Of a stretch of DNA of 64,000 nucleotides, positions 1,789 to 62,158 are shown one piece after another. The translations under genes and the position numbers were made by a program. Numbering within the stretch: the stretch's first letter is position 1; every line of letters starts with the position of its first letter. The notes under the pieces were generated by a model. It was not told the origin of the DNA. It was given only the letters and a program-made list of their open reading frames with translations, and made no database searches. Source of the stretch: an uncultured Clostridia bacterium (GTDB lineage Bacteria > Bacillota > Clostridia > Lachnospirales > CAG-274); contig CANRPW010000006.1 in assembly GCA_947632615.1 (NCBI GenBank), positions 11,826 through 75,825 of the forward strand. The letters are read 5' to 3'.

Positions 1789-3042
1789 ATGATGGATCTT
1801 AATACAATAGGCAAAAGAGCAAAGGCGGCGGCAAGGGTTGCGGCATCTCTTACAACAGGTGATAAAAACGAGCTTCTCAAGGCTTTGGCAGCCTCTCTTA
1901 TAACCGAAAGTAAAAGCATACTTGCGGCAAATGCCGTTGATGTAGACAAGGCTGTAAAGGCAGGCACAAAAGCTTCTCTTGTAGACAGGCTTTCGCTTAA
2001 TAAGGATAGGATAGAAGCCATGGCGGACGGTCTTTTGCAGATATCAAAGCTGCCCGACCCGATCGGTGAAGTAATAAATATGAAGACCCTTCCCAACGGA
2101 CTTATTGTGGGAGAAAAGAGAGTGCCCATGGGCGTTGTGGGCATAATATATGAGGCGCGCCCCAACGTGACCGCAGATGCCTTCGGGCTTTGCCTTAAAT
2201 CGGGAAACGCCGTAATACTTAAAGGCGGCTCGGATGCTATAAATTCTAATATGGCTATTGTGGCAGCATTTAAAAAGACCATTGAAAAAATGGGTATAAA
2301 CTCCGACTTGGTGCAGCTTATAGAAGACACCTCAAGAGAAACGGCAACTGCCCTTATGCGCCTTAACGAATATATTGACGTTTTGATACCGAGAGGCGGC
2401 GGCGGACTTATAAGGTCGGTGGTTGAAAATTCCACCGTGCCCGTTATAGAAACAGGCGTAGGCAACTGCCACATATACATTGACGACACCGCCGACAAGC
2501 AAATGGGTATAGACATAATAATAAATGCCAAAACCCAGCGCCCGGGAGTATGCAATGCAGCGGAAACACTGCTTGTAAGCGAAAAAGCAGCTAAAGCTTT
2601 CCTCCCCGATGCCATAAAAGCCCTTAAGGCTAAAAATGTTGAAATAAGGGGCTGTGAAAAGACTGTCAATATCTGCCCCGATATGGGTATAAGACCCGCA
2701 ACGGAAGAGGATTATTATACGGAATTTCTTGACTACATTTTAGCCGTAAAGGTCGTCGGAAATGTAGACGAAGCAATAGAGCATATAGCAAAATATTCTA
2801 CAGGACATTCTGAGGCAATAGTTACGGAAAGCTATACCAATGCCATGAAATTCTTAAATGAGGTAGACTCTGCCGCAGTATATGTAAACGCTTCAACACG
2901 TTTTACAGACGGCAATGAGTTTGGCTTTGGAGCAGAAATAGGCATATCTACACAAAAGCTCCACGCAAGAGGCCCTATGGGGCTAAAGGCACTTACAACA
3001 TCTAAATTTATAATATACGGAAACGGTCAGATAAGAGGTTGA
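1789..3042 (+). CDS. proA: Gamma-glutamyl phosphate reductase
   Basis: 417 aa with [33 protein letters not shown] and TGHSEAIVT, matching ProA aldehyde dehydrogenase family motifs. Adjacent to proB. Confidence 0.92.
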
Positions 3043-3197
3043 TTTCAACCTCTTGGTTGAAATCAACCTGCCGCCCCGCGCAAGCCGAAGCCCAAACCGT
3101 CAAAGACGGTTTGGGCTTCGGCTTGCGCGGGACGGGTCGGGGCGAGAACAAGGCGGGGAGGGCAAAGCCCTCCCCGCCTTGTTCTCGCCCCGACCCG
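3036..3197. repeat. GC-rich hairpin array A1 (3 abutting perfect hairpins) between convergent proA and GH28
   Basis: Hand-complemented stems: 3036-3050/3055-3069 (15 bp, loop tctt, left arm includes the proA stop); 3075-3101/3105-3131 (27 bp, loop aaa); 3133-3163/3167-3197 (31 bp, loop aaa). Confidence 0.9.
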
Positions 3198-8214: not shown

Positions 8215-8224
8215 AAATTTGGCA

Positions 8225-8458
8225 CGCCGTTCTTACTCGATCAAAGATCGAGTGCGAACGGCGACCAGCGGGGGCAAAAGGGGCGGCTTCGCCGCCCTTT
8301 TGCCCCCGCTGTTTGGCGCGCCGCCCGGCTTCCATCGAAGATGGAAGCCGGGCGGCGACCGTCGGGGCGAGGCGAGGGGAAAAAGCAAGGCAGGGACAAG
8401 CAAGCTTGTCCCTGCCTTGCTTTTTCCCCTCGCCTCGCCCCTAAAGACAGTGGCTGTC
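8225..8458. repeat. GC-rich hairpin array A2 (4 large + 1 small hairpin) between convergent fbp and permease gene
   Basis: 8225-8242/8246-8263 (18 bp, one mismatch plus one G-T, loop aaa); 8266-8311 (21 bp plus 1-nt bulge, loop ttc); 8319-8336/8340-8357 (18 bp perfect, loop gaa); 8364-8401/8404-8441 (38 bp perfect); 8446-8458 (gacag tgg ctgtc). Confidence 0.9.
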
Positions 8459-9678: not shown

Positions 9679-9855
9679 TCTTATTCCTCAATTCATATAA
9701 AAATCTAATAAATTATACCACGGCTAAACTGCAAATTCAACCTCTGACATAAATATTGAATATTAGTGACATATTTTTGCCGTTTGTTGACATCGGGGCG
9801 CAAAAATATTATAATTAAAATAATAAAAAACCGCAAAAAATGGGGGAGAGAGGGT

Positions 9856-10599
9856 ATGGCAGAGCATAAAATAATATTTTCGGAAGATGGCTGTATGAAG
9901 CATTTGGAGGACGAGTCTGCGCAGCTTGTTATAGCTTTTCTTCCAAACATTGAGGGCAAAAGTCCCGAAAAATATTTTTATGACACAGAAAAAATTATTA
10001 AAGAGAGCGTACGTGCCCTTTCACAGGGCTGTAAAATATGTATAGGCATAGAGGAAAGACCCTTTTTGAACGAGGGAAGATATAAGGCTGTTTCTGTAAA
10101 GTCAGAAATAATTTCTCTTTTGTCAGGGCTTTGCTGCGACTATATGGGAAGCATTATAAGACAAACCTCTCCCGCAGGGGGCGGCACCGTTCTGGGAAGC
10201 TATCCTTACCCAAGAAACGGCATACTTAAAATAAACTACGACTACATACTTATATTTAAAAAATACGGCAATGCGCCAAAACCCACGGAGGAGCAAAAAA
10301 GCTCGTCAATTATGACAAGCGAAGAATGGCAGGCCTATTTTTCGCCCATTTGGAGGCTTGAAAGCGAAAACCGCCGCGAAGAAAGCATAAAAAGGCTCAT
10401 TAAAATGTTTTCGTTTGCAGATGAGACCGTTCTCGACCCCTTTATGTATGACGGAGCCACCGCCCTTTGTGCCAAAAAGCTGGGCAGGCGCTCAGTAAGC
10501 TATGAGAGGGACAAAACAAAGCTTAACGAGATAAGGCGCAGGCTCAATGCGGATCAGCTTACTCTCTGGGGCGAAGAGTTTGAATTTATATACGATTAA
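9856..10599 (+). CDS. Beta-class N4/N6 DNA-methyltransferase homologue with degenerate catalytic and SAM motifs
   Basis: The C-terminal VLDPFMYDGATALCAKKLGRRSVSYERD aligns with the canonical DPFxGSGTT...LGR..iGiE. The N-terminal LVIAFLPNIEG sits where (D/S)PPY is expected. ATG 9856 follows a GGGGGAGAGAGGG RBS-like run. Confidence 0.55.
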   Translation: MAEHKIIFSEDGCMKHLEDESAQLVIAFLPNIEGKSPEKYFYDTEKIIKESVRALSQGCKICIGIEERPFLNEGRYKAVSVKSEIISLLSGLCCDYMGSIIRQTSPAGGGTVLGSYPYPRNGILKINYDYILIFKKYGNAPKPTEEQKSSSIMTSEEWQAYFSPIWRLESENRREESIKRLIKMFSFADETVLDPFMYDGATALCAKKLGRRSVSYERDKTKLNEIRRRLNADQLTLWGEEFEFIYD

Positions 10600-10695: not shown

Positions 10696-10769
<74 letters not shown>

Positions 10770-15351: not shown

Positions 15352-15363
15352 AGTATATTTGCC

Positions 15364-15706
15364 CGCCCCTCCCAAACCATCAGAGATGGTTTGGGAGGGG
15401 CGAGCCGCGGGGCGGAGAAAAACAAAGCAAAGAGAGGGCAGCTTTGCTGCCCTCTCTTTGCTTTGTTTTTCTCCGCCCCCGCGAGCCACCCGACCGCCTC
15501 ATCTTTAGATGAGGCGGTCGGGTGGCTAAACATCAAAAGCCCGCCCAACCGAACCGCCTTTGGCGGTTCGGTTGGGCGGGCTTCGCGGGGCAGGGGAAAA
15601 CGCAGCAAAAAGAGGACGGCTTTGCCGTCCTCTTTTTGCTGCGTTTTCCCCTGCCCCCGCGAGTCGCCCCCTGCCGATCATCTTCGATGATCGGCAGGGG
15701 GCGGCT
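15364..15706. repeat. GC-rich hairpin array A3 (6 abutting hairpins) between convergent purA and a stalk-domain gene
   Basis: 15364-15381/15385-15402 (18 bp, loop aga); 15406-15483 (37 bp plus 1-nt bulge, loop ttt); 15484-15503/15508-15527 (20 bp, loop ttta); 15537-15558/15562-15583 (22 bp, loop ttt); 15584-15661 (37 bp plus 1-nt bulge, loop ttt); 15662-15682/15686-15706 (21 bp, one G-T, loop ttc). Confidence 0.9.
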
Positions 15707-15712
15707 AAAAAA

Positions 15713-16765
15713 TCATTCTGTTTCGGTAGTTGTTTCGACCGTAATGTCTGTAGTAGTTTCTGTAGTAGTTTCTGTAGTTTCCTCTGTTGTTTCTTCATCT
15801 ATAGGCTCAAGCCCAAGCGCCTCGATGGCTATGCCTGCGGGAACATACATTTTTTTGTCGACTATAGCGGCTTTTACGTCATCCTCGCCAAAATATATTA
15901 TCTCATCGTCTACAATATAATAATCGCTTTCGTGTATAAACTTAACTATTTTATCCTTATAGCATATAGTAACAGTCTTTGTGGAAGAGTCCCAATCCAC
16001 ATAGCTGTTCTCGTCATCTACTGATATAATATCGCTTATATCTCTTACTGCCACAAGATCGTTTTTGTCAAGGTCAAATATAGTCGGCTCTGCGGTCGTA
16101 GTTTCCGTTTCTTCCTCAGTAACCTCTGCAGTTGTAGGCTGCTCCGTTGTTTCTTCGGTTGTTGTTTCATCATCCGTAGGGTCAGCCTCTGTTTTGCGGT
16201 TTGCAAGAGAAGGAACGGCTACACCCTTTGTAAATATATAATTACCTGTAAGGGTTGTGCTTGATATTGTAGTTCCGTTAGACTCAATTTTTATCTTTAT
16301 ATTGCCGGAACCGTTGGCTCTTAAAGGAAGTTTTATTCTGTAACAGCCGGTTTTGTTCACGTGATTTACTCTGTAGATAGAATACCCAGCATACATTGTA
16401 GGCACGTTTATGAGCTTGACTTCCATTTCATGAGTGTTTATTCTTCTTATCTTGTAAGGAAGCTCAAAGGTTTTTACCTTTGGCATAAAGTCATAAAAGC
16501 CCTCGCCTCTCCAATCGTAAGGATATTGATACATGCTGTCAATATCAGACTGGCTGAGTATGTCGGCATTCGTAACTGATATTACTATTGATGAACCTGT
16601 TGTCACCTCATTATACGGTGTTATTTTAAGATATTGTGTGGGCTGTATAGCTTCATCTCTTATAACGCTGACTCTGTCAAGCCCTGCATAAGAAGCCGCA
16701 AATATGTTTATGTTTAAAAGTAATATAAAAGCCATTAATAGCGCTAATGTTTTTTTCATATTCAT
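15713..16765 (-). CDS. Secreted protein with Thr/Glu-rich linkers and a C-terminal copper-amine-oxidase-N-like (stalk) domain
   Basis: Signal peptide MNMKKTLALLMAFILLLNINIFAAS after a GGAGGA RBS. Two T/E-rich low-complexity tracts. KKMYVPAGIAIEALG resembles the stalk-domain core. Confidence 0.6.
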   Translation of the reverse strand: MNMKKTLALLMAFILLLNINIFAASYAGLDRVSVIRDEAIQPTQYLKITPYNEVTTGSSIVISVTNADILSQSDIDSMYQYPYDWRGEGFYDFMPKVKTFELPYKIRRINTHEMEVKLINVPTMYAGYSIYRVNHVNKTGCYRIKLPLRANGSGNIKIKIESNGTTISSTTLTGNYIFTKGVAVPSLANRKTEADPTDDETTTEETTEQPTTAEVTEEETETTTAEPTIFDLDKNDLVAVRDISDIISVDDENSYVDWDSSTKTVTICYKDKIVKFIHESDYYIVDDEIIYFGEDDVKAAIVDKKMYVPAGIAIEALGLEPIDEETTEETTETTTETTTDITVETTTETE

Positions 16766-16912
16766 TCCTCCAATTCCACAGTATTTTCTTTTTATATTAT
16801 ACACCAAATTTACAGATTTTGCATTAGAAAATTATTAATTTTTGTTAAAGACAAATTTCACAAACTTCGCTTTGTGAGTATACTCTTTATAGAAACCGTG
16901 AGGTAAAATATT

Positions 16913-19485: not shown

Positions 19486-20175
19486 ATGAAAAAAATGTTA
19501 TTATTAGGCGCAGCCTTGGCTATGTGTTTCAATCCGTTTACGGTTTTGGCTTCCCAGGGAACGCAGCAGGCACAAATAACCTACAAAAACATAACCGTAT
19601 ACACCGACGGCAAGCTTGTTGACACAACAGGCGCAGAGCCATTTATTTACAACGGTACTACATATCTCCCCGTAAGAGCCATAGCAAACGCTGTAGGCAA
19701 GGAGGTAAACTGGGTAGGCGAAACCAACACAGTCTATCTTGGGGCTATGCCCTCAGCCTTTGTAGAAACAGACACCCTTCTTGAAGATATGTACTCCTAC
19801 AACAACAGCTTTGCAAAAATAGAGCATGTAAATAAGGGCGCAGACAACCAAAACCAAAAGCACGAAAGCGGCTGCCTTCTTAAATGCACAAGCGTAGGGG
19901 CAGAAACCGAAAATAAAGTGGAATATTCATTAAACGGTAAATATAAGAGCTTTAAAGCCGTTGTTGCCGTGCCTTATGTTGAAAGAAACAATAAAAATCC
20001 CAAAACAGTCAAAATATATTCAGATGATAAGGTAGTATATACCTCAAACCCCATGAAGGCAGATTCACAGCCCGAAGCAGTTGACATTGATGTCTCAGAT
20101 ACAGCAGTGCTCAAAATAGAGGTAGAAGGCTCAGGCATAATAGGCTTATATGACGCTATGTTTTACACAAAATAA
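19486..20175 (+). CDS. Secreted stalk-domain (copper-amine-oxidase-N-like) protein with C-terminal NPCBM-like beta domain
   Basis: Signal peptide MKKMLLLGAALAMCFNPFTVLA. PFIYNGTTYLPVRAIANAVGKEVNW is the typical stalk-domain core. The assignment of the C-terminal beta-rich module is tentative. Confidence 0.65.
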   Translation: MKKMLLLGAALAMCFNPFTVLASQGTQQAQITYKNITVYTDGKLVDTTGAEPFIYNGTTYLPVRAIANAVGKEVNWVGETNTVYLGAMPSAFVETDTLLEDMYSYNNSFAKIEHVNKGADNQNQKHESGCLLKCTSVGAETENKVEYSLNGKYKSFKAVVAVPYVERNNKNPKTVKIYSDDKVVYTSNPMKADSQPEAVDIDVSDTAVLKIEVEGSGIIGLYDAMFYTK

Positions 20176-20329
20176 AGCCGACCATATAAACGGCTCATAA
20201 GCGGAGCGAGGGAACAAAGAAAAGACAGGGGAGAGCAGCTTTGCTGCTCTCCCCTGTCTTTTCTTTGTTCCCTCGCTCCGCCCCCGGTGGTCCGCCTTCT
20301 TTTAACATCTGTGATGTTAAAAGGAGGCG
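20176..20329. repeat. GC-rich hairpin array A4 between a convergent stalk-domain gene and xylB
   Basis: 20176-20195 (weak 5-bp stem); 20201-20239/20243-20281 (39 bp perfect, loop ttt); 20293-20309/20313-20329 (17 bp, one G-T, loop tgt). Confidence 0.9.
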
Positions 20330-20338
20330 TGGCCAACA

Positions 20339-29588: not shown

Positions 29589-32500
29589 ATGAAGCTTAAT
29601 TTCGTGCTTGGAAAAAGCGGCAGCGGCAAAACAAGCTATTGCATAGACAAAATGCTTTGCGCTCCCCTGTCAAAAAAAATAATATATATAACACCCGAGC
29701 AATTTACGCTTGAGTCTGAAAAAAAGCTGACGGCTCTTAGAAGGTCACTCATAAATATAGATGTTGTCAGCTTTAACAGGCTGCGTTTTCATATGGCGGT
29801 GGATACGGGCAGCATAAGAAAGGAATTTCTTGACGACGAAAGCAAAAGCATGATATTAAGAAGGCTTATATGCGAGCTTGACCTTAAGGCGCTTAATATA
29901 AATGCCAACAGCCCCGGTGCTGTAGAGCGCATAGGCAGGGCAATAAGCGAATTTTACAGATTTGGCATAAGCTGTGATATGCTTAAGGGCAGAATTTCCG
30001 AAATAGAAGAAGAAAACAAGGGCTTCGGCGAAAAAATGAAGGACCTTCTTGCCATATACGAACGCTATGACAGCTTTATATCGGAAAAGTATATTTCTTC
30101 CGATCAACTTTTGGACTATATAGCCGACAAAATTAAGGAAAGCTCTCTTTTTGACGGCAGCCTTGTAGTTATAGACGGCTTCAACAGCTTCACCGCCCAG
30201 GAGTATAAGGTAATATCCGAAATTCTTGCATACGCCGAAGAAACCACCGTCACCCTGTGTATGGAAAAAGCAGTAGACAAGCTTGAAAGCGATGTGCTTT
30301 TAGACCCCTTCTACGAAACCAAAAAGGCGTATGTAAAAATACTGGGTCTTTTCAGAGAGCTTTTTCCCAAAGACGGAGAGGTAAAAAACATATATCCCGG
30401 CTTTGTGTCTAAAAGAAAAGCAGCTTTAGGACATTTGGAGAGAGAATTTTTTAATATAGAACCCGAAAAATACCAAGCCCCTGCTCCCGAAATAAAGGTT
30501 ATAGCCGGGGTAAACCCAAGAGCCGAGGTATCGGCAGTATGTGATGAGATCTGCCGACTTGCGGAAAACGGCGTGAGATATAGAGAAATGGCAGTCATAC
30601 TTTGTGACCCCTCATATCTTTCCATACTCAGAAGCGAGCTGAAAAAAAGAGGTGTACCCGACTTTACAGACGGAAGAACCCCTGTGGTGTCTCACCCCTG
30701 CGCCGTTTTTATGGTCTCTCTTGTAAATATGCTGGCATATAATCTGAACTCAGACTATGTTTTTACATTTTTAAAGACAGACCTTACAGATATAGACAAA
30801 GAGGACGTAATGCGCCTTGAAAAATACGCCGCCAAAAGAGGCGTCAGCGGCTATAGATGGGGCTATGAATTTAATGACGAACATTTGGAAAGCGTAAGGC
30901 AAAGATTTATGGAAATAATTGCCCCCATGTACGAAGCCTTTACACCTACAGGCAAATATACCGTGGAAGAGATAAGCCGAAAAATATTCGATGTAATAGA
31001 TGAAGCCCACTTTTACGATAAATATGAGCCCCTTACAAACGACCCCGATGACAAGGTATTGTCGTCAAGGTATAAACAGGTATGGGAGCAGACTATTGCT
31101 ACCTTTGATAAAATGGAAGAATTTTTAGGGGATCAGAAAGTAACTCTTGAAGAATACGGCGAAATTTTAAAAACAGGATTTGGCGGAAAATCTGTAGCCA
31201 CCATACCTCTTTACGGAGACAACATAATAATAGGCGACATAGAAAGAAGCCGTCTGCCCGAGATAAAGGCTATGTTTGTTTTAGGCGCAATAAGAGGAAG
31301 CCTGCCGAGAAGGTTTGACGACGATGGGCTTATAAGTGATGCGGAAAGAGAGCTTATGAAGGCAAAGGGCTTAGAGCTTGCAGCAGGCAGCGACGAGATG
31401 TTATCACTTGAATATCTCAAAATATATCAGATATTCACAAAGCCCACCGACTATCTTATGATAAGCTATCCCATAGGCACAAACTCGGGAGAAAAGCTCG
31501 AAAAATCAGAAATAGCCGATAAAATAGAAAAAATGTTTTCTATCACACCTAAGGTATATGCCGAAAAAATTTACTCTCCTAAATGCACTGAGCCCTTTAT
31601 GCCAAAGAATTCTATCTCCGAAGAACTGACAAGGAAGATATATAAAGACGAGCTCACCCTTTCAAGCTCCCGCCTTGACAGATATGTAAAATGCCCGTTT
31701 TCATACTATCTCAAGTATGTTTTACAGCTTCAGGAGGAAAAAAACTTTGAAATAAACAGCCTTGACAAGGGCAATGTAATGCACAGCATTATGGAAAAAT
31801 TTTTCAAGGAACAGGATGATATTGAAAACCTTACAGACGAAGAAATAAGCCGCAAGGTGGGCGAAATGATGCCTCAAATTCTGGAAGATACTATTCCCAA
31901 TATATTTGGAGATGAAAAAAAGCTTCCTGAAAATATGCTTAAGCTAAAATATTTTTGCCGTGTTATGGAAAAAACAGCAGAAAAATCTCTTAGGGCAAAC
32001 ATCGACCAGCTTACAAACAGCAGCTTTTTGCCTGCGGAATTTGAAGTGAGCTTTGGAAACAAGCCGGGTGATATGTTTTCCGCAATAGACCTTGGCAGCG
32101 GTATAAAGCTTGCAGGAAAGATCGACAGGGTAGACCTCTTTGAGCACGACAACAAAATATATGTAAAAATAACCGACTATAAATCCTCTGTGCAGACCAT
32201 TGACTTTACGGAGATATACAACGGACTGAAGCTTCAGATGATATTATATTTAAAGGCATACATATCCGAAAGGCAAAAGAAGGAAGATAAAAAAACCGTG
32301 ACCCCGTCGGGACTTATGTATTTTGCATTTCAAAATCCTTTGACAGATGAAGACAAGGTGGGCAGCGAAAACATTAAAAATCATATAAAAGACAGCTTTC
32401 GCCCCGTAGGCATAGTTTCTGAAAATGAAGAAAACCTGAAGGCGCTTGAAAATAAAAACGACAAGTCATATTTTAAAAATTTGGAATGTGTATCAGAAGA

Positions 32501-32702
32501 CTTTCTTAATTCTCTAATGGACAAAGGCATGAAAAAAGCGGAAGCGATAGGTAATGACATACGCCAAGGCAAGTTTCCTGCTATGCCGTATTTATATAAA
32601 TCCCAATACGGCTGTGACTACTGTCCCTACGAAGGAATTTGTAAGATCGATATAGACAGATCAAAAAGAAAAATATTCAAAAAAGAAGAAAGCGAAAAGT
32701 AA
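29589..32702 (+). CDS. addB: ATP-dependent helicase/nuclease subunit B (AddB/RexB)
   Basis: 1037 aa with an N-terminal P-loop GKSGSGKT, a C-terminal PD-(D/E)XK region (GKIDRVD...ITDYKSS) and terminal Cys cluster CDYCPYEGIC. Confidence 0.88.
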   Translation: MKLNFVLGKSGSGKTSYCIDKMLCAPLSKKIIYITPEQFTLESEKKLTALRRSLINIDVVSFNRLRFHMAVDTGSIRKEFLDDESKSMILRRLICELDLKALNINANSPGAVERIGRAISEFYRFGISCDMLKGRISEIEEENKGFGEKMKDLLAIYERYDSFISEKYISSDQLLDYIADKIKESSLFDGSLVVIDGFNSFTAQEYKVISEILAYAEETTVTLCMEKAVDKLESDVLLDPFYETKKAYVKILGLFRELFPKDGEVKNIYPGFVSKRKAALGHLEREFFNIEPEKYQAPAPEIKVIAGVNPRAEVSAVCDEICRLAENGVRYREMAVILCDPSYLSILRSELKKRGVPDFTDGRTPVVSHPCAVFMVSLVNMLAYNLNSDYVFTFLKTDLTDIDKEDVMRLEKYAAKRGVSGYRWGYEFNDEHLESVRQRFMEIIAPMYEAFTPTGKYTVEEISRKIFDVIDEAHFYDKYEPLTNDPDDKVLSSRYKQVWEQTIATFDKMEEFLGDQKVTLEEYGEILKTGFGGKSVATIPLYGDNIIIGDIERSRLPEIKAMFVLGAIRGSLPRRFDDDGLISDAERELMKAKGLELAAGSDEMLSLEYLKIYQIFTKPTDYLMISYPIGTNSGEKLEKSEIADKIEKMFSITPKVYAEKIYSPKCTEPFMPKNSISEELTRKIYKDELTLSSSRLDRYVKCPFSYYLKYVLQLQEEKNFEINSLDKGNVMHSIMEKFFKEQDDIENLTDEEISRKVGEMMPQILEDTIPNIFGDEKKLPENMLKLKYFCRVMEKTAEKSLRANIDQLTNSSFLPAEFEVSFGNKPGDMFSAIDLGSGIKLAGKIDRVDLFEHDNKIYVKITDYKSSVQTIDFTEIYNGLKLQMILYLKAYISERQKKEDKKTVTPSGLMYFAFQNPLTDEDKVGSENIKNHIKDSFRPVGIVSENEENLKALENKNDKSYFKNLECVSEDFLNSLMDKGMKKAEAIGNDIRQGKFPAMPYLYKSQYGCDYCPYEGICKIDIDRSKRKIFKKEESEK

Positions 32703-32708
32703 TTCCAC

Positions 32709-33180
32709 ACGCCCATCAAATCACCACAGGTAATTTGATGGGCGTATGGCGCGGGCGAGGGGAAAATGGGGGCGGGCAAGCCCGCCCCCATTTTCCCCTC
32801 GCCCGCGCTCTGCGCCGGGACGGGGTGAATGAAGCGAGGATGAGGGCTGCTGCGCAGCCCTCATCCTCGCTTCATTCACCCCGTCCCGGCGCAGAGACAG
32901 CCAAACCGTCTGCGACGGTTTGGCTGTCGAGGCAATATAGCGCCTTCAACTCTTCAAATCACCTTCGGTGATTTGAAGAGTTGAAGGCACTGCGCGCGCG
33001 AGGAGAAAGCGGGGGACGGGCAAGCCCGTCCCCCGCTTTCTCCTCGCGCGCGCAGTGCATCGGGGCTGGGGCGAACGAACCGAGGGGAAGGACAGCTGCG
33101 CTGTCCTTCCCCTCGGTTCGTTCGCCCCAGCCCCGATGCCTCGACTCCCGAACCGTCTACGACGGTTCGGGAGTCGAGGC
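32709..33180. repeat. GC-rich hairpin array A5 (8 abutting hairpins, about 470 bp) between convergent addB and a stalk-domain gene
   Basis: 32709-32745 (13 bp); 32749-32777/32780-32808 (29 bp); 32810-32850/32854-32894 (41 bp, loop tgc); 32896-32910/32914-32928 (15 bp, tgc); 32942-32963/32967-32988 (22 bp, ttc); 32989-33021/33024-33056 (33 bp); 33057-33096/33100-33139 (40 bp, tgc); 33139-33157/33161-33179 (19 bp, tac). All stems are perfect by hand check. Confidence 0.92.
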
Positions 33181-33185
33181 GTCCT

Positions 33186-34532
33186 TTAAAATATTATCTG
33201 AACTGTACGAGAATTTCCATCATAGGTTATATTTTCGGAAGCAATATCAAAAGCATTGCATACATCTCTTACGGGAATATACATCATAGAATTATAAGCA
33301 TTTGCCGGAGTTGATACCGGTATTTTGACTCCGTTTGAGATCAGTATATCGCTGCCCTGCTGTATAGAGATTTCCTTTTCACCCTTTTTAAGAACAGCCG
33401 TCTTTGCAGCACTGTCATAGCTTATATTTTCATCTGTTATTCCTATAGCATTGGCAAGAGCTCTTAAAGGTAAAAGTGTTCTGTCATTTACTATTATACA
33501 GGGCGCGCCTGTCTTAACAGTTTCTCCGTTAAGGGTGTATGAAGCGCTGCCCACGGTAAATTTAAGTACATTCTCATCATCCGCCGTATTTTCACTGCTG
33601 TTTGTTTCGGCTGTTAAAGCACTGTCTTCATTTAAAGCTACACCGGCATCAAAATATTTGTGAGCCTCATAGCTTCTTTTAGCCTGTTCTCCCTCATTTG
33701 TGGTATATTTTGTCTCAGCATTTGCCGAAACATAAAACTTCGGCACAACTCCCTTAGCTTTGTTGTTTTTTATCATTTTAAGCCCGGAGATCTTTATGTT
33801 GCCCATTTCGGCATTAGTTTCTCCGTCAAGCTTTATAGTAAAGGTCTTGCTTCCGATGGCTTCTACGGTCAATTTGTCCTCATACTTGCCCTCGCCCACA
33901 ACAACGGGAGAGCCTGCAAAGTCAAAGCCATTGTCAGCAAGAGTTATTTTAAATTCTGTTTTGTCAGGGCTTAAGGCAAAGCTTGTCTTATCCCTTATCA
34001 CAATATCAGAAAGCTCAGAAATACCGCTTTTATATATAGCTGCATTTTCATCATAGTCTATAGTGAAATATCCTGCCAGGTTGCTTGCAAACAGGAAGGT
34101 TGCATCATCCATATATGTGGGTGTTTCCGTTATATTAATATAAACAAGCCCGTCAGAAAAATTTTTCGCATAAAGCGGCAAAGCTATATCTATATTATTT
34201 TCTTTAAACATGGTTTTAAAATAATCGTAAGTAAATTTCACCTGAATATCATTTTTTGACGTTTCGGTTATTTGAATATTTTTATCTATGCTTGACATTT
34301 TGCCGATATCCCATTCCGCTCCGTCAAGAACCATGTGAAAAGCAAGGTCGCTTGTAGACTGACCTTTTACGTTTAATAAAAGCTGGGGCACATCTCCCTT
34401 TGCCTTTCCCAAATTCATATCATAATATGCGCCTTTAAGCTCTGCAGTGCAACCATTTCTTGCAGCAAACACACTGCCTGCCTGTAAAACAACTGCCACC
34501 ACGAGTATAAGTGTAAAAATATACTTTTTCAT
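33186..34532 (-). CDS. Secreted protein with two C-terminal stalk (copper-amine-oxidase-N-like) repeats
   Basis: ATG 34532 follows the GAGGAGG RBS. Signal peptide MKKYIFTLILVVAVVLQAGSVFA. The C-terminus has IIVNDRTLLPLRALANAIG and MMYIPVRDVCNAFD. Confidence 0.65.
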   Translation of the reverse strand: MKKYIFTLILVVAVVLQAGSVFAARNGCTAELKGAYYDMNLGKAKGDVPQLLLNVKGQSTSDLAFHMVLDGAEWDIGKMSSIDKNIQITETSKNDIQVKFTYDYFKTMFKENNIDIALPLYAKNFSDGLVYINITETPTYMDDATFLFASNLAGYFTIDYDENAAIYKSGISELSDIVIRDKTSFALSPDKTEFKITLADNGFDFAGSPVVVGEGKYEDKLTVEAIGSKTFTIKLDGETNAEMGNIKISGLKMIKNNKAKGVVPKFYVSANAETKYTTNEGEQAKRSYEAHKYFDAGVALNEDSALTAETNSSENTADDENVLKFTVGSASYTLNGETVKTGAPCIIVNDRTLLPLRALANAIGITDENISYDSAAKTAVLKKGEKEISIQQGSDILISNGVKIPVSTPANAYNSMMYIPVRDVCNAFDIASENITYDGNSRTVQIIF

Positions 34533-34741
34533 TTTAAAAAACCTCCTCAAAACAAAATCCAACAAAACTATAATAACACATTTCAAAAAAAATGTATAGT
34601 ATCAATATAAATTATTCGCCTTAAATACTCATTTTTTGACCCAAAACCCCTCAACAAATGAAAATATTTATTGCTTTTTGTTTTATAGGATATTAAAATT
34701 AACATATAGGCGTTTTTACAAATAACAAGGAGATAAATTTT

Positions 34742-38075: not shown

Positions 38076-38185
38076 GCCGGGTTGGCGGGGCGAGATGGGG
38101 CGGCGCAGCCGCCCCATCTCGCCCCGCCCCGGCGCCGGTTTCTGTCAACAGCTTTCCGTAGGAAAGCTGTTGACAGAAACCGGCG
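38076..38185. repeat. GC-rich hairpin array A6 (2 hairpins) between co-directional pgeF and der
   Basis: 38076-38133 (26 bp plus a 3-nt bulge gtt, loop gca); 38133-38157/38161-38185 (25 bp perfect, loop gta). Only 29 nt separate the array from the der ATG. Confidence 0.9.
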
Positions 38186-41205: not shown

Positions 41206-41347
41206 CGCCCTGTTTTAACATCTCTATCGAGATGTTAAAACAGGGCGACCCGTGGGGGCGTGGGAGAGAGGCGAGGCGAGCCGAGGGAAACGGAGCCGCT
41301 TCGGGCTCCGTTTCCCTCGGCTCGCCTCGCCTCTCTCCCACGCCTCC
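41206..41347. repeat. GC-rich hairpin array A7 (2 hairpins) between co-directional gpsA and the GH43 gene
   Basis: 41206-41224/41229-41247 (19 bp perfect, loop tatc); 41254-41297/41304-41347 (44 bp with one G-T, loop gcttcg). Confidence 0.9.
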
Positions 41348-41415
41348 AAACCGCAGCTTTGTTGGCAAAAATCTTTGTTTGGCAAAATTTTAAAATTATA
41401 TATAGGAGAAAAATT

Positions 41416-46659: not shown

Positions 46660-46759
46660 TTTTACAACCTCAAAAAAGCCCGTAAAATAAGGCTTTTGCC
46701 GCTTTAATGCCCTCCGTGGCAACAAAATGGCAACATTATTCGGATTATTGCATAAGTAA

Positions 46760-46801
46760 AGAGCTATCAGATTTTTGATGTCTGATAGCTCTTTTTGTTT
46801 T
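46760..46801. terminator. Bidirectional stem-loop between guaA and the protease gene
   Basis: 12-bp perfect stem agagctatcaga/tctgatagctct with a 9-nt loop, followed by ttttgttttt on the plus strand. It directly abuts the stop of the minus-strand gene. Confidence 0.6.
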
Positions 46802-47497: not shown

Positions 47498-47683
47498 TTA
47501 TTTTTCCTCTTTAAGTGCCTTTGTCAATATTTCACTGAGTTCCTGTGATGGAACTTTTACATAACCAGCGGCTTCATCATGTTTCGGATAATGATAGCAC
47601 CACCTGTCGTAATCTTCCCGGCTGATCTCACCCGCCCTGAGCTTGTCCGCCTGCGCTTTCCAAGCGGTAAGCATTTGCAGCAA
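47498..47683 (-). CDS. Small 61-aa protein coupled to the protease gene (possibly the C-terminal remnant of a longer gene)
   Basis: TTG start. Its stop lies 1 nt before the protease ATG. The frame stays open only 10 more codons upstream (to 47713). The composition is noticeably more G+C-rich than the flanks. Confidence 0.4.
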   Translation of the reverse strand: MLQMLTAWKAQADKLRAGEISREDYDRWCYHYPKHDEAAGYVKVPSQELSEILTKALKEEK

Positions 47684-47941
47684 TTCGGCTGCGTCCTTTC
47701 CCTTGTCGGCGTTCTATAGCCGGATCAGTACTGTGCCATACGGATGTCGGCGGTCTTTTCAGGAAAACCAACCTACATACCAAAATATTTTTGAGTCATA
47801 CCTCTTAAATTTCTGAAAAAGCAAACTCTTTCACCGATAGCAATAAAAATGCTCCTATCTTATTCCTAAAATGAAATATAACATAACAAGTTAGGATGTG
47901 TCAAGATAACCAAAGCAAAAAAGTAAGTGTTTTCTGTGATG

Positions 47942-48318
47942 TCAATAGATATGACCCATTTTCTTAAAAAAGAAAATATTCGGTATGGTAACGCACATGG
48001 AGTGCTTTCCGGTTGTAAAATACCTTTGATCATTTCTATGGCTTCGTTTTATCTTTCCATTGTACCATGGTGTCCTCGGCGGTATCAGTTTGTGCTCTAT
48101 TCCCATTTCCCGAAATTTCTCATCAAACGGACAATCTTCCTTTTCACTTATATATTTGTATGTAAATTCTGTTCCGTTGTCTGTTTGTATTGTTTGTATT
48201 TTATACGGAAATATCTTTTGTAGTATTTCAAGAAATTTCACCGAGTTTTCCGGTGTATGCTTAATTAAGCTTGGTAACTCAATTGTACCATGCCAAGGTT
48301 TGAACTTCTCTTTTTTAT
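47942..48318 (-). pseudogene. IS481-like DDE transposase fragment (C-terminal catalytic part only)
   Basis: The open frame reads ...IQTDNGTEF...GIEHKLIPPRTPWYNGKIKRSHRNDQRYF, matching the rve-domain D..E region. There is no N-terminal HTH or first catalytic Asp region, and no Met start. Confidence 0.7.
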
Positions 48319-48468
48319 TGGTTCATATCATTTTACTTCATACAAGCTATGTATTTAATACCATTGCCTTTGCTATAAGTAGTATTGTTAGTGCCATAAC
48401 ATTTTGTTATTTTCATTTGCCATTACTCTTCTTAATTTTTTATATATTTCTTATTTCTTTTGTGGCAT

Positions 48469-48505
48469 AAAAAACCGCTCCTTTAAAACAAGAGCGGAAA
48501 AAAAT
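48469..48505 (-). terminator. Intrinsic terminator readable on the minus strand
   Basis: ccgctc (48475-48480) pairs with gagcgg (48492-48497). On the minus strand the stem is followed by tttttt. Confidence 0.4.
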
Positions 48506-48585
48506 AAATTTATTAAAGATACTTGATACGCAACAAGCATTATGCTATAATTAAAGCTTAGAAAGGAGGTGTCAGAATAATTGAT

Positions 48586-48669
48586 TTGATCACTGGCTTG
48601 ATAAGCTTAATAACCTCAATAATTTCACTCATAACAGCGGTTATTTTGTACAAGCTCAGTAAAAAGTAA
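48586..48669 (+). CDS. Candidate small hydrophobic peptide 1 (about 27-30 aa, Lys-rich C-terminus)
   Basis: AGGAGG at 48564-48569. The frame reads (IID)LITGLISLITSIISLITAVILYKLSKK*. The start codon is ambiguous (ATA 48577, ATT 48580 or TTG 48586). Confidence 0.3.
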   Translation: MITGLISLITSIISLITAVILYKLSKK

Positions 48670-48728
48670 ACTACCGGAGAGGGTTACGCCATCTCCCTCT
48701 TTGGGGCTATAAATCAATCATCAAAAAT

Positions 48729-48821
48729 ATGCAATACATTTCATTAATAATTTCAATTCTTGCCTTTATCATTGCCGTAATAGCTTTGATTAAGGTGATC
48801 AAAAAGTCAAAGGAGAAGTAA
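48729..48821 (+). CDS. Candidate small hydrophobic peptide 2 (30 aa), paralogue of peptide 1
   Basis: ATG 48729: MQYISLIISILAFIIAVIALIKVIKKSKEK*. It shares the ISLI..I....I.AVI...K..KK pattern with peptide 1. The stop lies 1 nt before the GTG of the HTH gene. Confidence 0.35.
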   Translation: MQYISLIISILAFIIAVIALIKVIKKSKEK

Positions 48822-48822
48822 A

Positions 48823-49023
48823 GTGTCTGAATTTAATACTACTAAGGAACTGCGGGATTTTATTTCCGACAATGTGATTTCTACGGGTGAAGCAGCTGAA
48901 ATTCTCGGTTGCTCACGCCAATATATAAATCAGCTTGTGAAGGAAAAAAAGCTTATTCCCATAAAAAAAATCAATTATATAACACTGTTTTTAAAATCAG
49001 ATGTAGAAGCAAGACTTAAATAG
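48823..49023 (+). CDS. Xis/AlpA-like helix-turn-helix DNA-binding protein (66 aa)
   Basis: ISTGEAAEILGCSRQYINQLVKEKKLIPIKK is a typical HTH_17/excisionase-type motif. GTG start after AAGGAGAAG. Confidence 0.6.
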   Translation: MSEFNTTKELRDFISDNVISTGEAAEILGCSRQYINQLVKEKKLIPIKKINYITLFLKSDVEARLK

Positions 49024-49027
49024 CTTT

Positions 49028-49057
49028 AAAGCAAGGCTTAATCAGTCTTGCTTTTTT
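49028..49057 (+). terminator. Intrinsic terminator after the HTH gene
   Basis: aaagcaag / cttgcttt 8-bp stem with an 11-nt loop and a T-run. Confidence 0.55.
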
Positions 49058-49306
49058 CATTGGTGAGTTTTAACTGGCAGTATTAGCCCCAAGCAGTCCC
49101 CACACTCTAAATCAACCATTCTGTTTATTCACCGCCGTTTTTTAAGCTGTCAAGATATTCGTCCGCCTTGATTGCCTCCTGTGTAAAGATGTTAGCCCGG
49201 AGCGATGTACCTATGGTGAAGGCAAGGCTTATAAGCTGTGTTATCTGCTCGTCCCCTATGGGTAGGAGAGTTATACCCCTAACAGTTATTTACATTAAAT
49301 AAATAT

Positions 49307-49345
49307 ACACAAAAAGACTCAGGCCTTTATTGGGGTGAGTCTTTT
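49307..49345 (-). terminator. Intrinsic terminator (minus strand) after the Cys-rich protein gene
   Basis: aaaagactca / tgagtctttt 10-bp stem. The minus strand continues tgtgtat. Confidence 0.5.
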
Positions 49346-49381
49346 ATTTATGTAGTCGTTTATTTGTGAATGATGGGGGTA

Positions 49382-53195: not shown

Positions 53196-53372
53196 CCAAA
53201 CCGCGGTCAGGAGCGCGGGGGCGAGGCGGGCAAAGCAAAAAGGGACAATGGACGGGTTTACCCGTCCATTGTCCCTTTTTGCTTTGCCTGCCTCGCCCCC
53301 GCGCGCACGCCGCCCTGCCTCAACACGCCAAAACCGCCGTAGGCGGTTTTGGCGTGTTGAGGCAGGGCGGCG
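53196..53372. repeat. GC-rich hairpin array A8 at the 3' end of the pan operon / upstream of the dehydratase operon
   Basis: 53213-53256/53261-53304 (44 bp with one G-T, loop ttta); 53308-53338/53342-53372 (31 bp perfect, loop gta). A one-armed remnant of the CCAAACCGC tip lies at 53196-53204. Confidence 0.9.
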
Positions 53373-62111: not shown

Positions 62112-62158
62112 ATAAAAAGAGGCTGTCACATCAAAATGATGTGACAGCCTTTTATTTG
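62112..62158. terminator. Bidirectional intrinsic terminator
   Basis: 14-bp perfect stem aggctgtcacatca / tgatgtgacagcct with loop aaa. An A-run lies upstream and tttatttg downstream. It sits between convergent genes. Confidence 0.8.

Follow-up and report, generated by a model that had tools for sequence, protein, structure and literature searches.

Arrays of long, nearly perfect hairpins at gene 3' ends in two sister species of gut Clostridia

We analyzed 64,000 nucleotides of an uncultured Clostridia bacterium (assembly GCA_947632615.1, contig CANRPW010000006.1, positions 11,826 to 75,825 of the forward strand), hereafter called the window, in which all coordinates are counted from the first letter. 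In the window, addB and a gene that converges on it are separated by an array of eight successive hairpins, which consists of two tandem copies of one four-hairpin unit. The array belongs to a family of about 30 hairpins in the window, whose copies differ by 20-40% in sequence and yet each keep Watson-Crick-perfect arms. Every stem difference scored between the two copies of the unit, or between one hairpin and its orthologue in a sister species, is mirrored on both arms. Our preferred reading, drawn from the sequence and held with guarded confidence, is that these elements would act as transcription terminators and protectors of transcript 3' ends, with arms that are kept matched by a process acting on DNA.

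Anatomy of the array downstream of addB

The addB gene (29589-32702, plus strand; 1037 aa) was identified by its Pfam domains, ADDB_N and PDDEXK_1, and by synteny in relatives. It closes the gene block prmA-rsmE-iscS-thiI-addB. The array begins 2 nt past its stop codon. At the far end, 2 nt separate it from the stop of the converging gene (33186-34586, minus strand), which encodes a probably secreted protein with a Cu_amine_oxidN1 domain (Pfam). A repeat search, a perfect-stem scan, and folding as RNA and as DNA all showed eight successive hairpins filling the space from the addB stop (32702) to that of the converging gene (33186). Loops are 2-3 nt long, adjacent hairpins overlap by 0-2 nt, and perfect stems cover 408 of the 479 nt.

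Hairpin 1 (S1; 32705-32749) has a 21-bp stem with two C-A mismatches, the form CGCC...CAAATCACC and the loop ACA. Hairpin 2 (L1; 32749-32808) is a perfect 29-bp stem with the loop AA and an imperfect extension to 32741-32816; its inner stem, GGGGGCGGGC/GCCCGCCCCC, is bordered by AAAAT and ATTTT and thus forms a terminator-like core within a GC clamp. Hairpin 3 (LL1; 32808-32896; 43 bp, perfect) has the loop TGC and no T-tract, and hairpin 4 (S'1; 32896-32928; 15 bp) has the tip CCAAACCGTC and the loop TGC. The 13-nt spacer GAGGCAATATAGC (32929-32941) follows; it is the sole unpaired stretch of the array and marks the junction of the two tandem units. Beyond it lie the paralogues of hairpins 1 to 4 in the same order: hairpin 5 (S2; 32942-32988; 22 bp, loop TTC), which has TCAAATCACC in common with hairpin 1; hairpin 6 (L2; 32987-33058; 35 bp, perfect, loop AA), with the weak T-tract TTTCT; hairpin 7 (LL2; 33057-33139; 40 bp, perfect, loop TGC); and hairpin 8 (S'2; 33138-33180; 20 bp, perfect, loop TAC), which reaches 23 bp with one mismatch if taken to 33135-33183. 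In terms of the two hairpin classes described below, S and L, the array reads S-L-L-S | S-L-L-S.

The predicted minimum free energy of the array as RNA was -470.5 kcal/mol, compared with -206 ± 6.9 kcal/mol for shuffled sequences (z = -38.5), and folding of the opposite strand as DNA gave z = -39.8. Of the perfect stems in the window, 25 reach 15 bp or more and ten of these 30 bp or more, whereas the longest stem in 20 dinucleotide shuffles of the window was 12 bp. The GC content of the array is 63%, compared with about 43% for the window. An earlier reading made from the letters alone (the sequence-only reading) had described eight contiguous hairpins with hardly any spacer and had proposed folding both strands as a check; the description stands on all of these analyses. 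Its stem lengths were slightly conservative, 41, 33 and 19 bp being in fact 43, 35 and 20 bp, and the 13 bp that it gave for hairpin 1 are the perfect part of the 21-bp stem. Its term "largest array", implying a wider family, was also apt, as the family members elsewhere in the window show.

Three other interpretations of the array, as a CRISPR locus, attC sites or small open reading frames (ORFs), were ruled out by its anatomy. A constant short repeat of the CRISPR type is absent from the array, where the only direct repeats are the two 245-nt units, and the ORFs at 32735-32971 and 32981-33289 are by-products of the GC-rich palindromes. A search of Rfam at the gathering threshold found a tRNA as the sole match in the window and none in the array. 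At an E-value threshold the array gave only generic matches to miRNA precursors, that is, to long hairpins, far below the cut-off.

Tandem duplication with mirrored substitutions

Four direct-repeat families (D1-D4) with a spacing of 238-247 nt, together with a global alignment, delimited unit 1 (S1-L1-LL1-S'1; 32705-32941) and unit 2 (S2-L2-LL2-S'2; 32942-33183). The units, of about 245 nt each, align collinearly with about 75% identity. Comparison of 91 homologous base pairs showed that 72 were identical and 19 had changed on both arms, with no one-sided change. No G-U pair was present among the 215 bp of both units. The double changes include GC<->CG and AT<->TA swaps, for which a route through G-U intermediates is impossible. 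The sequence-only reading had suggested growth by local duplication followed by arm-matched divergence, in agreement with these counts. Of the small repeats that it cited, CAAATCAC was found at 32717-32724 and 32955-32962 and GTCGAGGC at 33173-33180, but the first copy of GTCGAGGC lies at 32926-32933, one base from the position given.

Orthology of the unit to two gene-end modules

The family was also found in a sister species, represented by an uncultured Clostridia metagenome-assembled genome (MAG) from rabbit gut (CANQXR010000026) with an AddB that is 75% identical. In this species addB is followed by an S hairpin (16 bp), an L hairpin (51 bp), a flavodoxin gene, a DUF3793 gene, and then an L hairpin (40 bp) and an S hairpin with a 1-nt bulge. 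The last two lie at the 3' end of a converging gene with a Cu_amine_oxidN1 domain (L101:14546-15889), which is the full-length orthologue of the window gene at 33186-34586 (68% amino acid identity). Hairpin 1 of the window is orthologous to the S hairpin after the sister-species addB, and S1+L1 are collinear with the addB-proximal S+L of that species at 75% identity. LL2+S'2 are in turn collinear, also at 75% identity, with the L+S of its converging gene. Because the modules are orthologous to two separate gene ends in the sister species, the four-hairpin unit is the S-L module of addB fused with the mirror-image L-S module of the converging gene. The modules came to adjoin each other in the lineage that lacks the two genes in between, and a tandem duplication of the entire unit followed; those two genes may have been gained in the one lineage or lost in the other.

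The substitutions between species follow the same pattern as those between units. LL2 and its sister-species orthologue are identical at 31 of 40 arm positions, and all nine differences are mirrored on the other arm. Thus 28 of 28 stem differences (19 paralogous and 9 orthologous) are mirrored on both arms, none is one-sided and none involves a G·U pair, which points to homogenization of the arms at the DNA level. Across the whole family, only 7 mismatches were found in 911 stem base pairs. Template switching has been reported to make imperfect inverted repeats perfect, and one event can bring about both changes of a compensatory pair (PMC8794818, PMC5941160, PMC7202029). Ordinary terminators of Bacillus cereus, for comparison, evolve via transient G-U intermediates (PMC5381666).

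Comparing the junction with related genomes was another check that the sequence-only reading had proposed, and the sister species indeed keeps both hairpin modules beside orthologous genes, with two extra genes between them. The fusion of two gene-end modules had escaped that reading, as had the terminator-like cores that many of the long hairpins hold. Its remark that the array occupies the place of addA was mistaken: in every relative examined addB closes the same gene block (prmA-rsmE-iscS-thiI-addB) and addA does not come next, with or without hairpins, so the array does not stand in its place. As far as the locus itself is concerned, no addA adjoins addB in the window or in L004, L006, L007 and L101.

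As sampled, the family appears to be confined to these two sister species of gut Clostridia. In the 119 kb examined from seven relatives at a greater distance (AddB 46-54% identical or PurA 83-89% identical) it was absent, and ordinary terminators were found instead. The four genomes among them that were chosen by PurA lacked the family, and none of these was the sister species. In a relative chosen by its fructose-1,6-bisphosphatase (FBPase) (L104; 92% identity) the gene order differed and offered no orthologous junction for comparison, and an AddB-based search of the JGI metagenomes found no relatives. One of the distant relatives has iscS and thiI called as a single fusion protein of 777 aa (L004:7658-9991).

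Two further junctions bear on the history of the family. At 20176-20338 the window carries an L and an S hairpin, whereas the orthologous junction of the sister species has an ordinary bidirectional terminator, a 12-bp stem followed by TTTTTATTT. This difference indicates that elements are gained or lost junction by junction and stand at terminator sites. The other junction follows purA. In four relatives (L009-L012) purA is followed by a gene for an FlK-like thioesterase, which is absent from the window at 15352-15712; there, a six-hairpin array and a converging Cu_amine_oxidN1 gene take its place. With the addB and purA junctions both altered relative to relatives, the two largest arrays lie where gene order differs.

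A hairpin family at gene 3' ends

The roughly 30 family hairpins fall into two classes that pair up. L-type hairpins have stems of 21-51 bp, a 5' arm that is 65-85% purine and often begins GGGGCGAGG, and the tip GGRCRGC. S-type hairpins have stems of 15-31 bp with a C/A-rich 5' arm of the form CGCC...(A)AACCRTC or ..ATC, which is followed by the loop. The base motifs (GGGGCGAGG or CGCC) and the tip motifs are kept, and the middle of the stem is variable. All 15 of the 15 L hairpins have an S neighbor, indicating that the unit of the family is the S-L pair. The S hairpin is on the side of the gene 3' end in 14 of 15 pairs and starts 2-12 nt past the stop codon. At this distance (32705, 33183, 8222, 20334 and 15706) a ribosome that terminates at the stop codon would reach the S hairpin and have to melt it.

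All family loci are at gene 3' ends, and none is inside a gene. The hairpins occupy five of the seven convergent junctions, 3 of 41 tandem ones and none of six divergent ones, and their GC content is 63-77%, compared with 43% for the genome. In addition to the addB array, the convergent junctions carry three hairpins with stems of 15, 31 and 31 bp at 3036-3197; S-L-S-L (20, 22, 18 and 38 bp) after the FBPase gene at 8222-8441; S-L-S-S-L-S (18, 34, 21, 22, 34 and 18 bp) after purA at 15364-15703; and L (39 bp) plus S (17 bp) at 20201-20329. Between tandem genes lie L (21 bp) plus S (25 bp) at 38084-38185, between pgeF and der; S (19 bp) plus L (45 bp, one G-T pair) at 41206-41348, between gpsA and a GH43 gene; and L (45 bp, one G-T pair) plus S (31 bp) at 53213-53372, between panD and ilvD, which are on the minus strand, giving the order gene-S-L. 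According to Pfam, the flanking genes are ordinary housekeeping genes. Cu_amine_oxidN1-domain genes, probably for secreted or surface proteins, were observed at three of the five array-bearing convergent junctions (33186-34586, 15713-16807 and 19486-20175).

L arms at unrelated loci, and between the two species, are 60-80% identical and have common base and tip motifs, which indicates that the copies share one source rather than independent origins. The best arm match between different loci was 31 of 40 positions (78%), and most matches were in the range of 50-70%. Loops of related S hairpins may be reverse complements of each other, as with TAC at 33158-33160 and GTA at 38158-38160 and 53339-53341; such pairs are expected either from the orientation of the elements or from micro-inversion of the loop by template switching. 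An apparent strand bias of the purine-rich arm (the G/A-rich arm first on the plus strand, as in a replication-linked orientation) proved void, because a perfect palindrome reads identically on both strands and only the loops and the S/L order carry orientation. An RNAalifold analysis of 13 L hairpins was not used, as the "broken" pairs that it showed were MAFFT misalignments of palindromes of unequal length. The purine-rich 5' arms of L hairpins hold three or four G-runs (e.g., GGGCGAGGGGAAAATGGGGGCGGGC) at 32753-32776 (L1), 8364-8395 and 33063-33091. These match or approach the G-quadruplex motif, which the 5' arm of L1 fits; a quadruplex would compete with the hairpin.

Terminator-like cores of the L hairpins

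Read from the loop outward, the 3' arms of L hairpins have about 12 GC-rich nucleotides, are T-rich at positions 13-24, and are then GC-rich again. A run of at least four T's directly follows the inner GC stem in 8 of the 15 L hairpins and is mirrored by A's on the other arm, as in the L1 core of the addB array (GGGGGCGGGC-AA-GCCCGCCCCC-ATTTT). This succession of A-tract, GC stem and T-tract resembles the design of a bidirectional intrinsic terminator placed inside an additional GC clamp. A simple terminator scan, in which T's were required after the whole stem, called only S1, on the minus strand; since such a scan misses the inner cores, its result is uninformative. A search of the JGI metagenomes with the L tip motif found three ordinary terminators (A-tract, stem and T-tract) of other bacteria, with a GC content of 58-63%.

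Authenticity of the palindromes

That the assembler made the palindromes is hardly credible. In other samples, processed with other assemblers (ENA ERZ27249285 and Logan ERR10663734), contigs were found that encode the same AddB and match the window at every base up to their ends, which lie within hairpins, at 33112 (L002) and at 32837 (L003). The second array (purA, 15364-15703) was likewise reproduced by an independent assembly, as was the sister-species sequence. Different samples and two pipelines thus gave the same sequence, and they did so for two arrays and two species. The mirrored substitutions between orthologous hairpins and the position of every hairpin exactly between genes also argue against an artifact. 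What could be said for it is that short-read contigs terminate within the hairpins, a sign that assemblers have trouble there, and short-read assemblies of both species do break systematically at the palindromes. We also observed contig ends inside long hairpins in L099, L100, L102 and L103, and in the sister species at L101:17718-17742.

Other features of the window

Two observations lie outside the hairpin loci. In a low-GC stretch of about 1.9 kb (47500-49380; 30-37% GC), the only ORF of 110 aa or more is a doubtful one at 48060-48470, for which Pfam gave no match. A stand-alone gene for an N6/N4 DNA methyltransferase (9766-10599) adjoins the only tRNA gene of the window (10696-10769), and no restriction partner was noticed.

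Comparison with known systems

Literature searches found no description of such a hairpin family. By analogy, it would work most like repetitive extragenic palindromic (REP) sequences, with the bacterial interspersed mosaic elements (BIMEs) that they form, and like bidirectional terminators, and yet it is unusual in degree. Like REPs and BIMEs, the hairpins are dispersed extragenic palindromes that are richer in GC than their surroundings and specific to a lineage. Both are concentrated downstream of genes and between converging or co-directional ones. The S and L types also alternate here (S-L-S-L, S-L-L-S and S-L-S-S-L-S), which resembles the mosaic clusters of BIMEs as far as element type goes; a perfect palindrome has an orientation only in its loop. 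REPs and BIMEs have been reported to act as partial terminators and mRNA stabilizers (PMC3733652; bioRxiv 10.64898/2026.03.23.713779). REPs, however, are palindromes that span 20-40 bp, their core sequence is well conserved, and their imperfect stems, of 5-13 bp, carry an unpaired tag (GTAG or CGTC) at one end (PMC3733652), whereas the stems described here are 15-51 bp long and essentially perfect in copies that are just 60-80% alike. No conserved unpaired tetranucleotide is present; the bases start with CGCC (S) or a sequence like GGGGCGAGG (L), and hairpins that abut or overlap by 0-2 nt leave no room for a tag of the REP type. REPs were also unreported from Firmicutes in the survey (PMC3733652), and no gene for a REP-associated tyrosine transposase (RAYT) is present within the 64 kb examined.

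The likeness to bidirectional intrinsic terminators lies in the position at gene ends, the two-way symmetry, the A-tract/GC stem/T-tract core of 8 of 15 L hairpins, and the ordinary terminator that fills one orthologous junction in the sister species. The differences are that the T-tract is buried here in a stem of 29-45 bp under a GC clamp, that up to eight elements stand in series, and that the A-tract/T-tract design is lacking in most S hairpins, in LL1 and LL2, and in the hairpins taken as a whole. In stem length the family exceeds terminators several-fold. The stem of a typical terminator measures 7-9 bp, and one of 15 bp has already been termed extraordinary; a longer stem confers resistance to antitermination (PMC10325885).

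The palindromic elements of chlamydomonadalean plastids and mitochondria are similar in that they are families of hairpins with 3-nt loops, fill intergenic DNA, insert into or beside each other, and undergo loop micro-inversions (PMC7043297), to which the GTA/TAC loops of related S hairpins may be compared. Their stems are 8-13 nt long and mostly AT-rich, with many near-identical copies (PMC7043297), in contrast to the long GC-rich stems, the diverged copies and the link to gene 3' ends in this bacterial chromosome. Correction of quasipalindromes by template switching fits the 28 mirrored and zero one-sided differences, but it is a mechanism rather than an element family, and the documented cases are short repeats and rRNA stems rather than a dispersed family with stems of 30-50 bp. 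Finally, REP doublets forming hairpins (REPINs), with their RAYTs, and miniature inverted-repeat transposable elements (MITEs; Correia, ERIC, RUP and BOX) are also non-coding, hairpin-forming, intergenic and lineage-restricted. They differ in having highly similar copies, defined ends and a mobilizing transposase (MITEs) or proposed RAYT (REPINs), none of which is evident here. As for the ends, no pair of empty and filled sites was close enough to align, and the one orthologous junction differs completely.

Discussion

In our preferred reading, the family elements would be strong terminators of transcription in both directions that also protect transcript 3' ends, and would insulate neighboring, mostly converging, genes. 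At many L hairpins, RNA polymerase arriving from either side would meet a GC stem and then a U-tract. The outer GC clamp and the additional hairpins would fold only in read-through RNA, which could then block 3' exonucleases or form long duplexes for RNase III. The arms would be kept perfect by a process at the DNA level, most likely template switching during replication or gene conversion between the arms, by which a new mutation would be either erased or copied to the opposite arm in one step. GC-biased conversion could account for the high GC content of the family, and arrays would grow by loss of intervening DNA and by tandem duplication.

Several points weigh against this reading. No hairpin has a T-tract outside its full stem, and LL1, LL2, the S' hairpins and the pair at 38084 lack a T-tract altogether. 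Canonical short terminators are present in the same window (46758-46800 and 62120-62150), indicating that long stems are dispensable for termination in this organism, and eight hairpins in series far exceed what termination needs. The pair at 38084-38185, one of 15, is in the opposite order relative to its upstream gene. Perfect pairing could in part reflect selection at convergent junctions, where both strands are transcribed. Furthermore, the homology of the clamps between loci calls for a mechanism of dispersal, and terminator function with arm maintenance supplies none.

A dispersal mechanism is what distinguishes the reading of the family as selfish or mobile palindromic DNA, similar to REPINs, MITEs or organelle palindromes, which we take seriously but think unlikely. 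In that case S-L pairs would be copied by machinery encoded elsewhere, either a transposase or a mechanism linked to repair; the copies, harmful in other places, would survive only at gene 3' ends, where they would pile up side by side, and any transcriptional effect would be incidental. Homologous copies are indeed dispersed over unrelated loci in both species, they differ widely from the genome in GC content, and the family is sharply restricted to one lineage (none in the 119 kb of seven relatives) and varies between presence and absence at one orthologous junction (20176-20338). The abutting hairpins moreover resemble the insertion of palindrome into palindrome in organelles (PMC7043297), and REPs have the same positional bias (PMC3733652). 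Yet a Pfam search of the genes in the 64-kb window, roughly 55 in number, revealed neither a transposase nor a Y1/HUH or RAYT gene, and no near-identical copies were found between the loci of the window and the sister species. With no inter-locus identity above about 78%, there is no sign of recent transposition. Two modules have instead been kept at orthologous gene ends since the species split, several copies enclose a terminator-like core, and BLAST searches of phage and plasmid collections with the array gave no match. A scan of IMG/VR with GGCGAGGGG..CCCCTCGCC was discarded, as its 83 matches were all chance occurrences in GC-rich phage contigs, with no long hairpin.

More doubtful is a palindrome family that both perfects and propagates itself, in which S-L pairs would spread between gene ends and be homogenized by a hairpin-templated DNA process. 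Fold-back or template-switch synthesis would be the candidates, possibly aided by the loss or gain of a hairpin-processing enzyme in this lineage. If this were true, arms of 30-50 bp would stay complementary while their sequence drifts by at least 25%, and the family would be a bacterial counterpart of the organelle palindromic elements that needs no classical transposase, as well as a natural system with single-step compensatory evolution.

Two explanations center on the duplex itself, as RNA or as DNA. RNase III cleavage and cruciform extrusion, both raised in the sequence-only reading, are plausible on general grounds. Transcribed arrays might serve mainly as a source of long double-stranded RNA that RNase III would cut, either to release small RNAs or to control how stable the flanking mRNAs are, with termination as a secondary effect. 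Bacterial RNase III needs roughly two helical turns, which the perfect stems of 29-45 bp exceed; the position in 3' untranslated regions would suit this role, as would the sub-threshold Rfam matches, which are only of the generic, miRNA-precursor-like kind, that is, long plain hairpins. We consider it improbable, because no conserved single-stranded or mature-RNA-like segment is present, the sequences are free to vary as long as pairing holds, and the terminator cores would halt many transcripts before the full stem is made. Even less probable is that the elements are sites in DNA, cruciforms or hairpins bound by gyrase, a nucleoid protein or a recombinase, as has been proposed for BIMEs, and that they affect supercoiling or the structure of the chromosome where transcription units converge. 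Converging transcription accumulates positive supercoils, and the strict Watson-Crick symmetry, the central spacers of 2-3 nt typical of DNA palindromes, and the conservation of base (GGGGCGAGG or CGCC) and tip motifs around a variable middle would be in keeping with such sites. However, GC-rich centers are poor at cruciform extrusion, and we know of no candidate binding protein. Both the strong link to stop codons and the presence of terminator-like cores speak for RNA instead. In recent work, moreover, a REP of Escherichia coli was found to have no role in chromosome compaction (bioRxiv 10.64898/2026.03.23.713779).

Because short-read assemblies break at the hairpins, the family is under-sampled in MAGs. 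Hairpin families of this kind will fragment MAGs at gene ends and be under-represented there, and they may be more widespread than is apparent. The location of the largest arrays at breaks in gene order is a hint that palindrome clusters mark, or promote, deletions. With about 28 compensatory changes in long stems and no intermediates, the evolution of stem pairing could be tested directly in a single gut lineage, given population and long-read data. Far longer palindromic modules may take the place of ordinary bidirectional terminators or develop from them, and in synthetic biology with Clostridia such modules could be useful as strong insulators in both directions.

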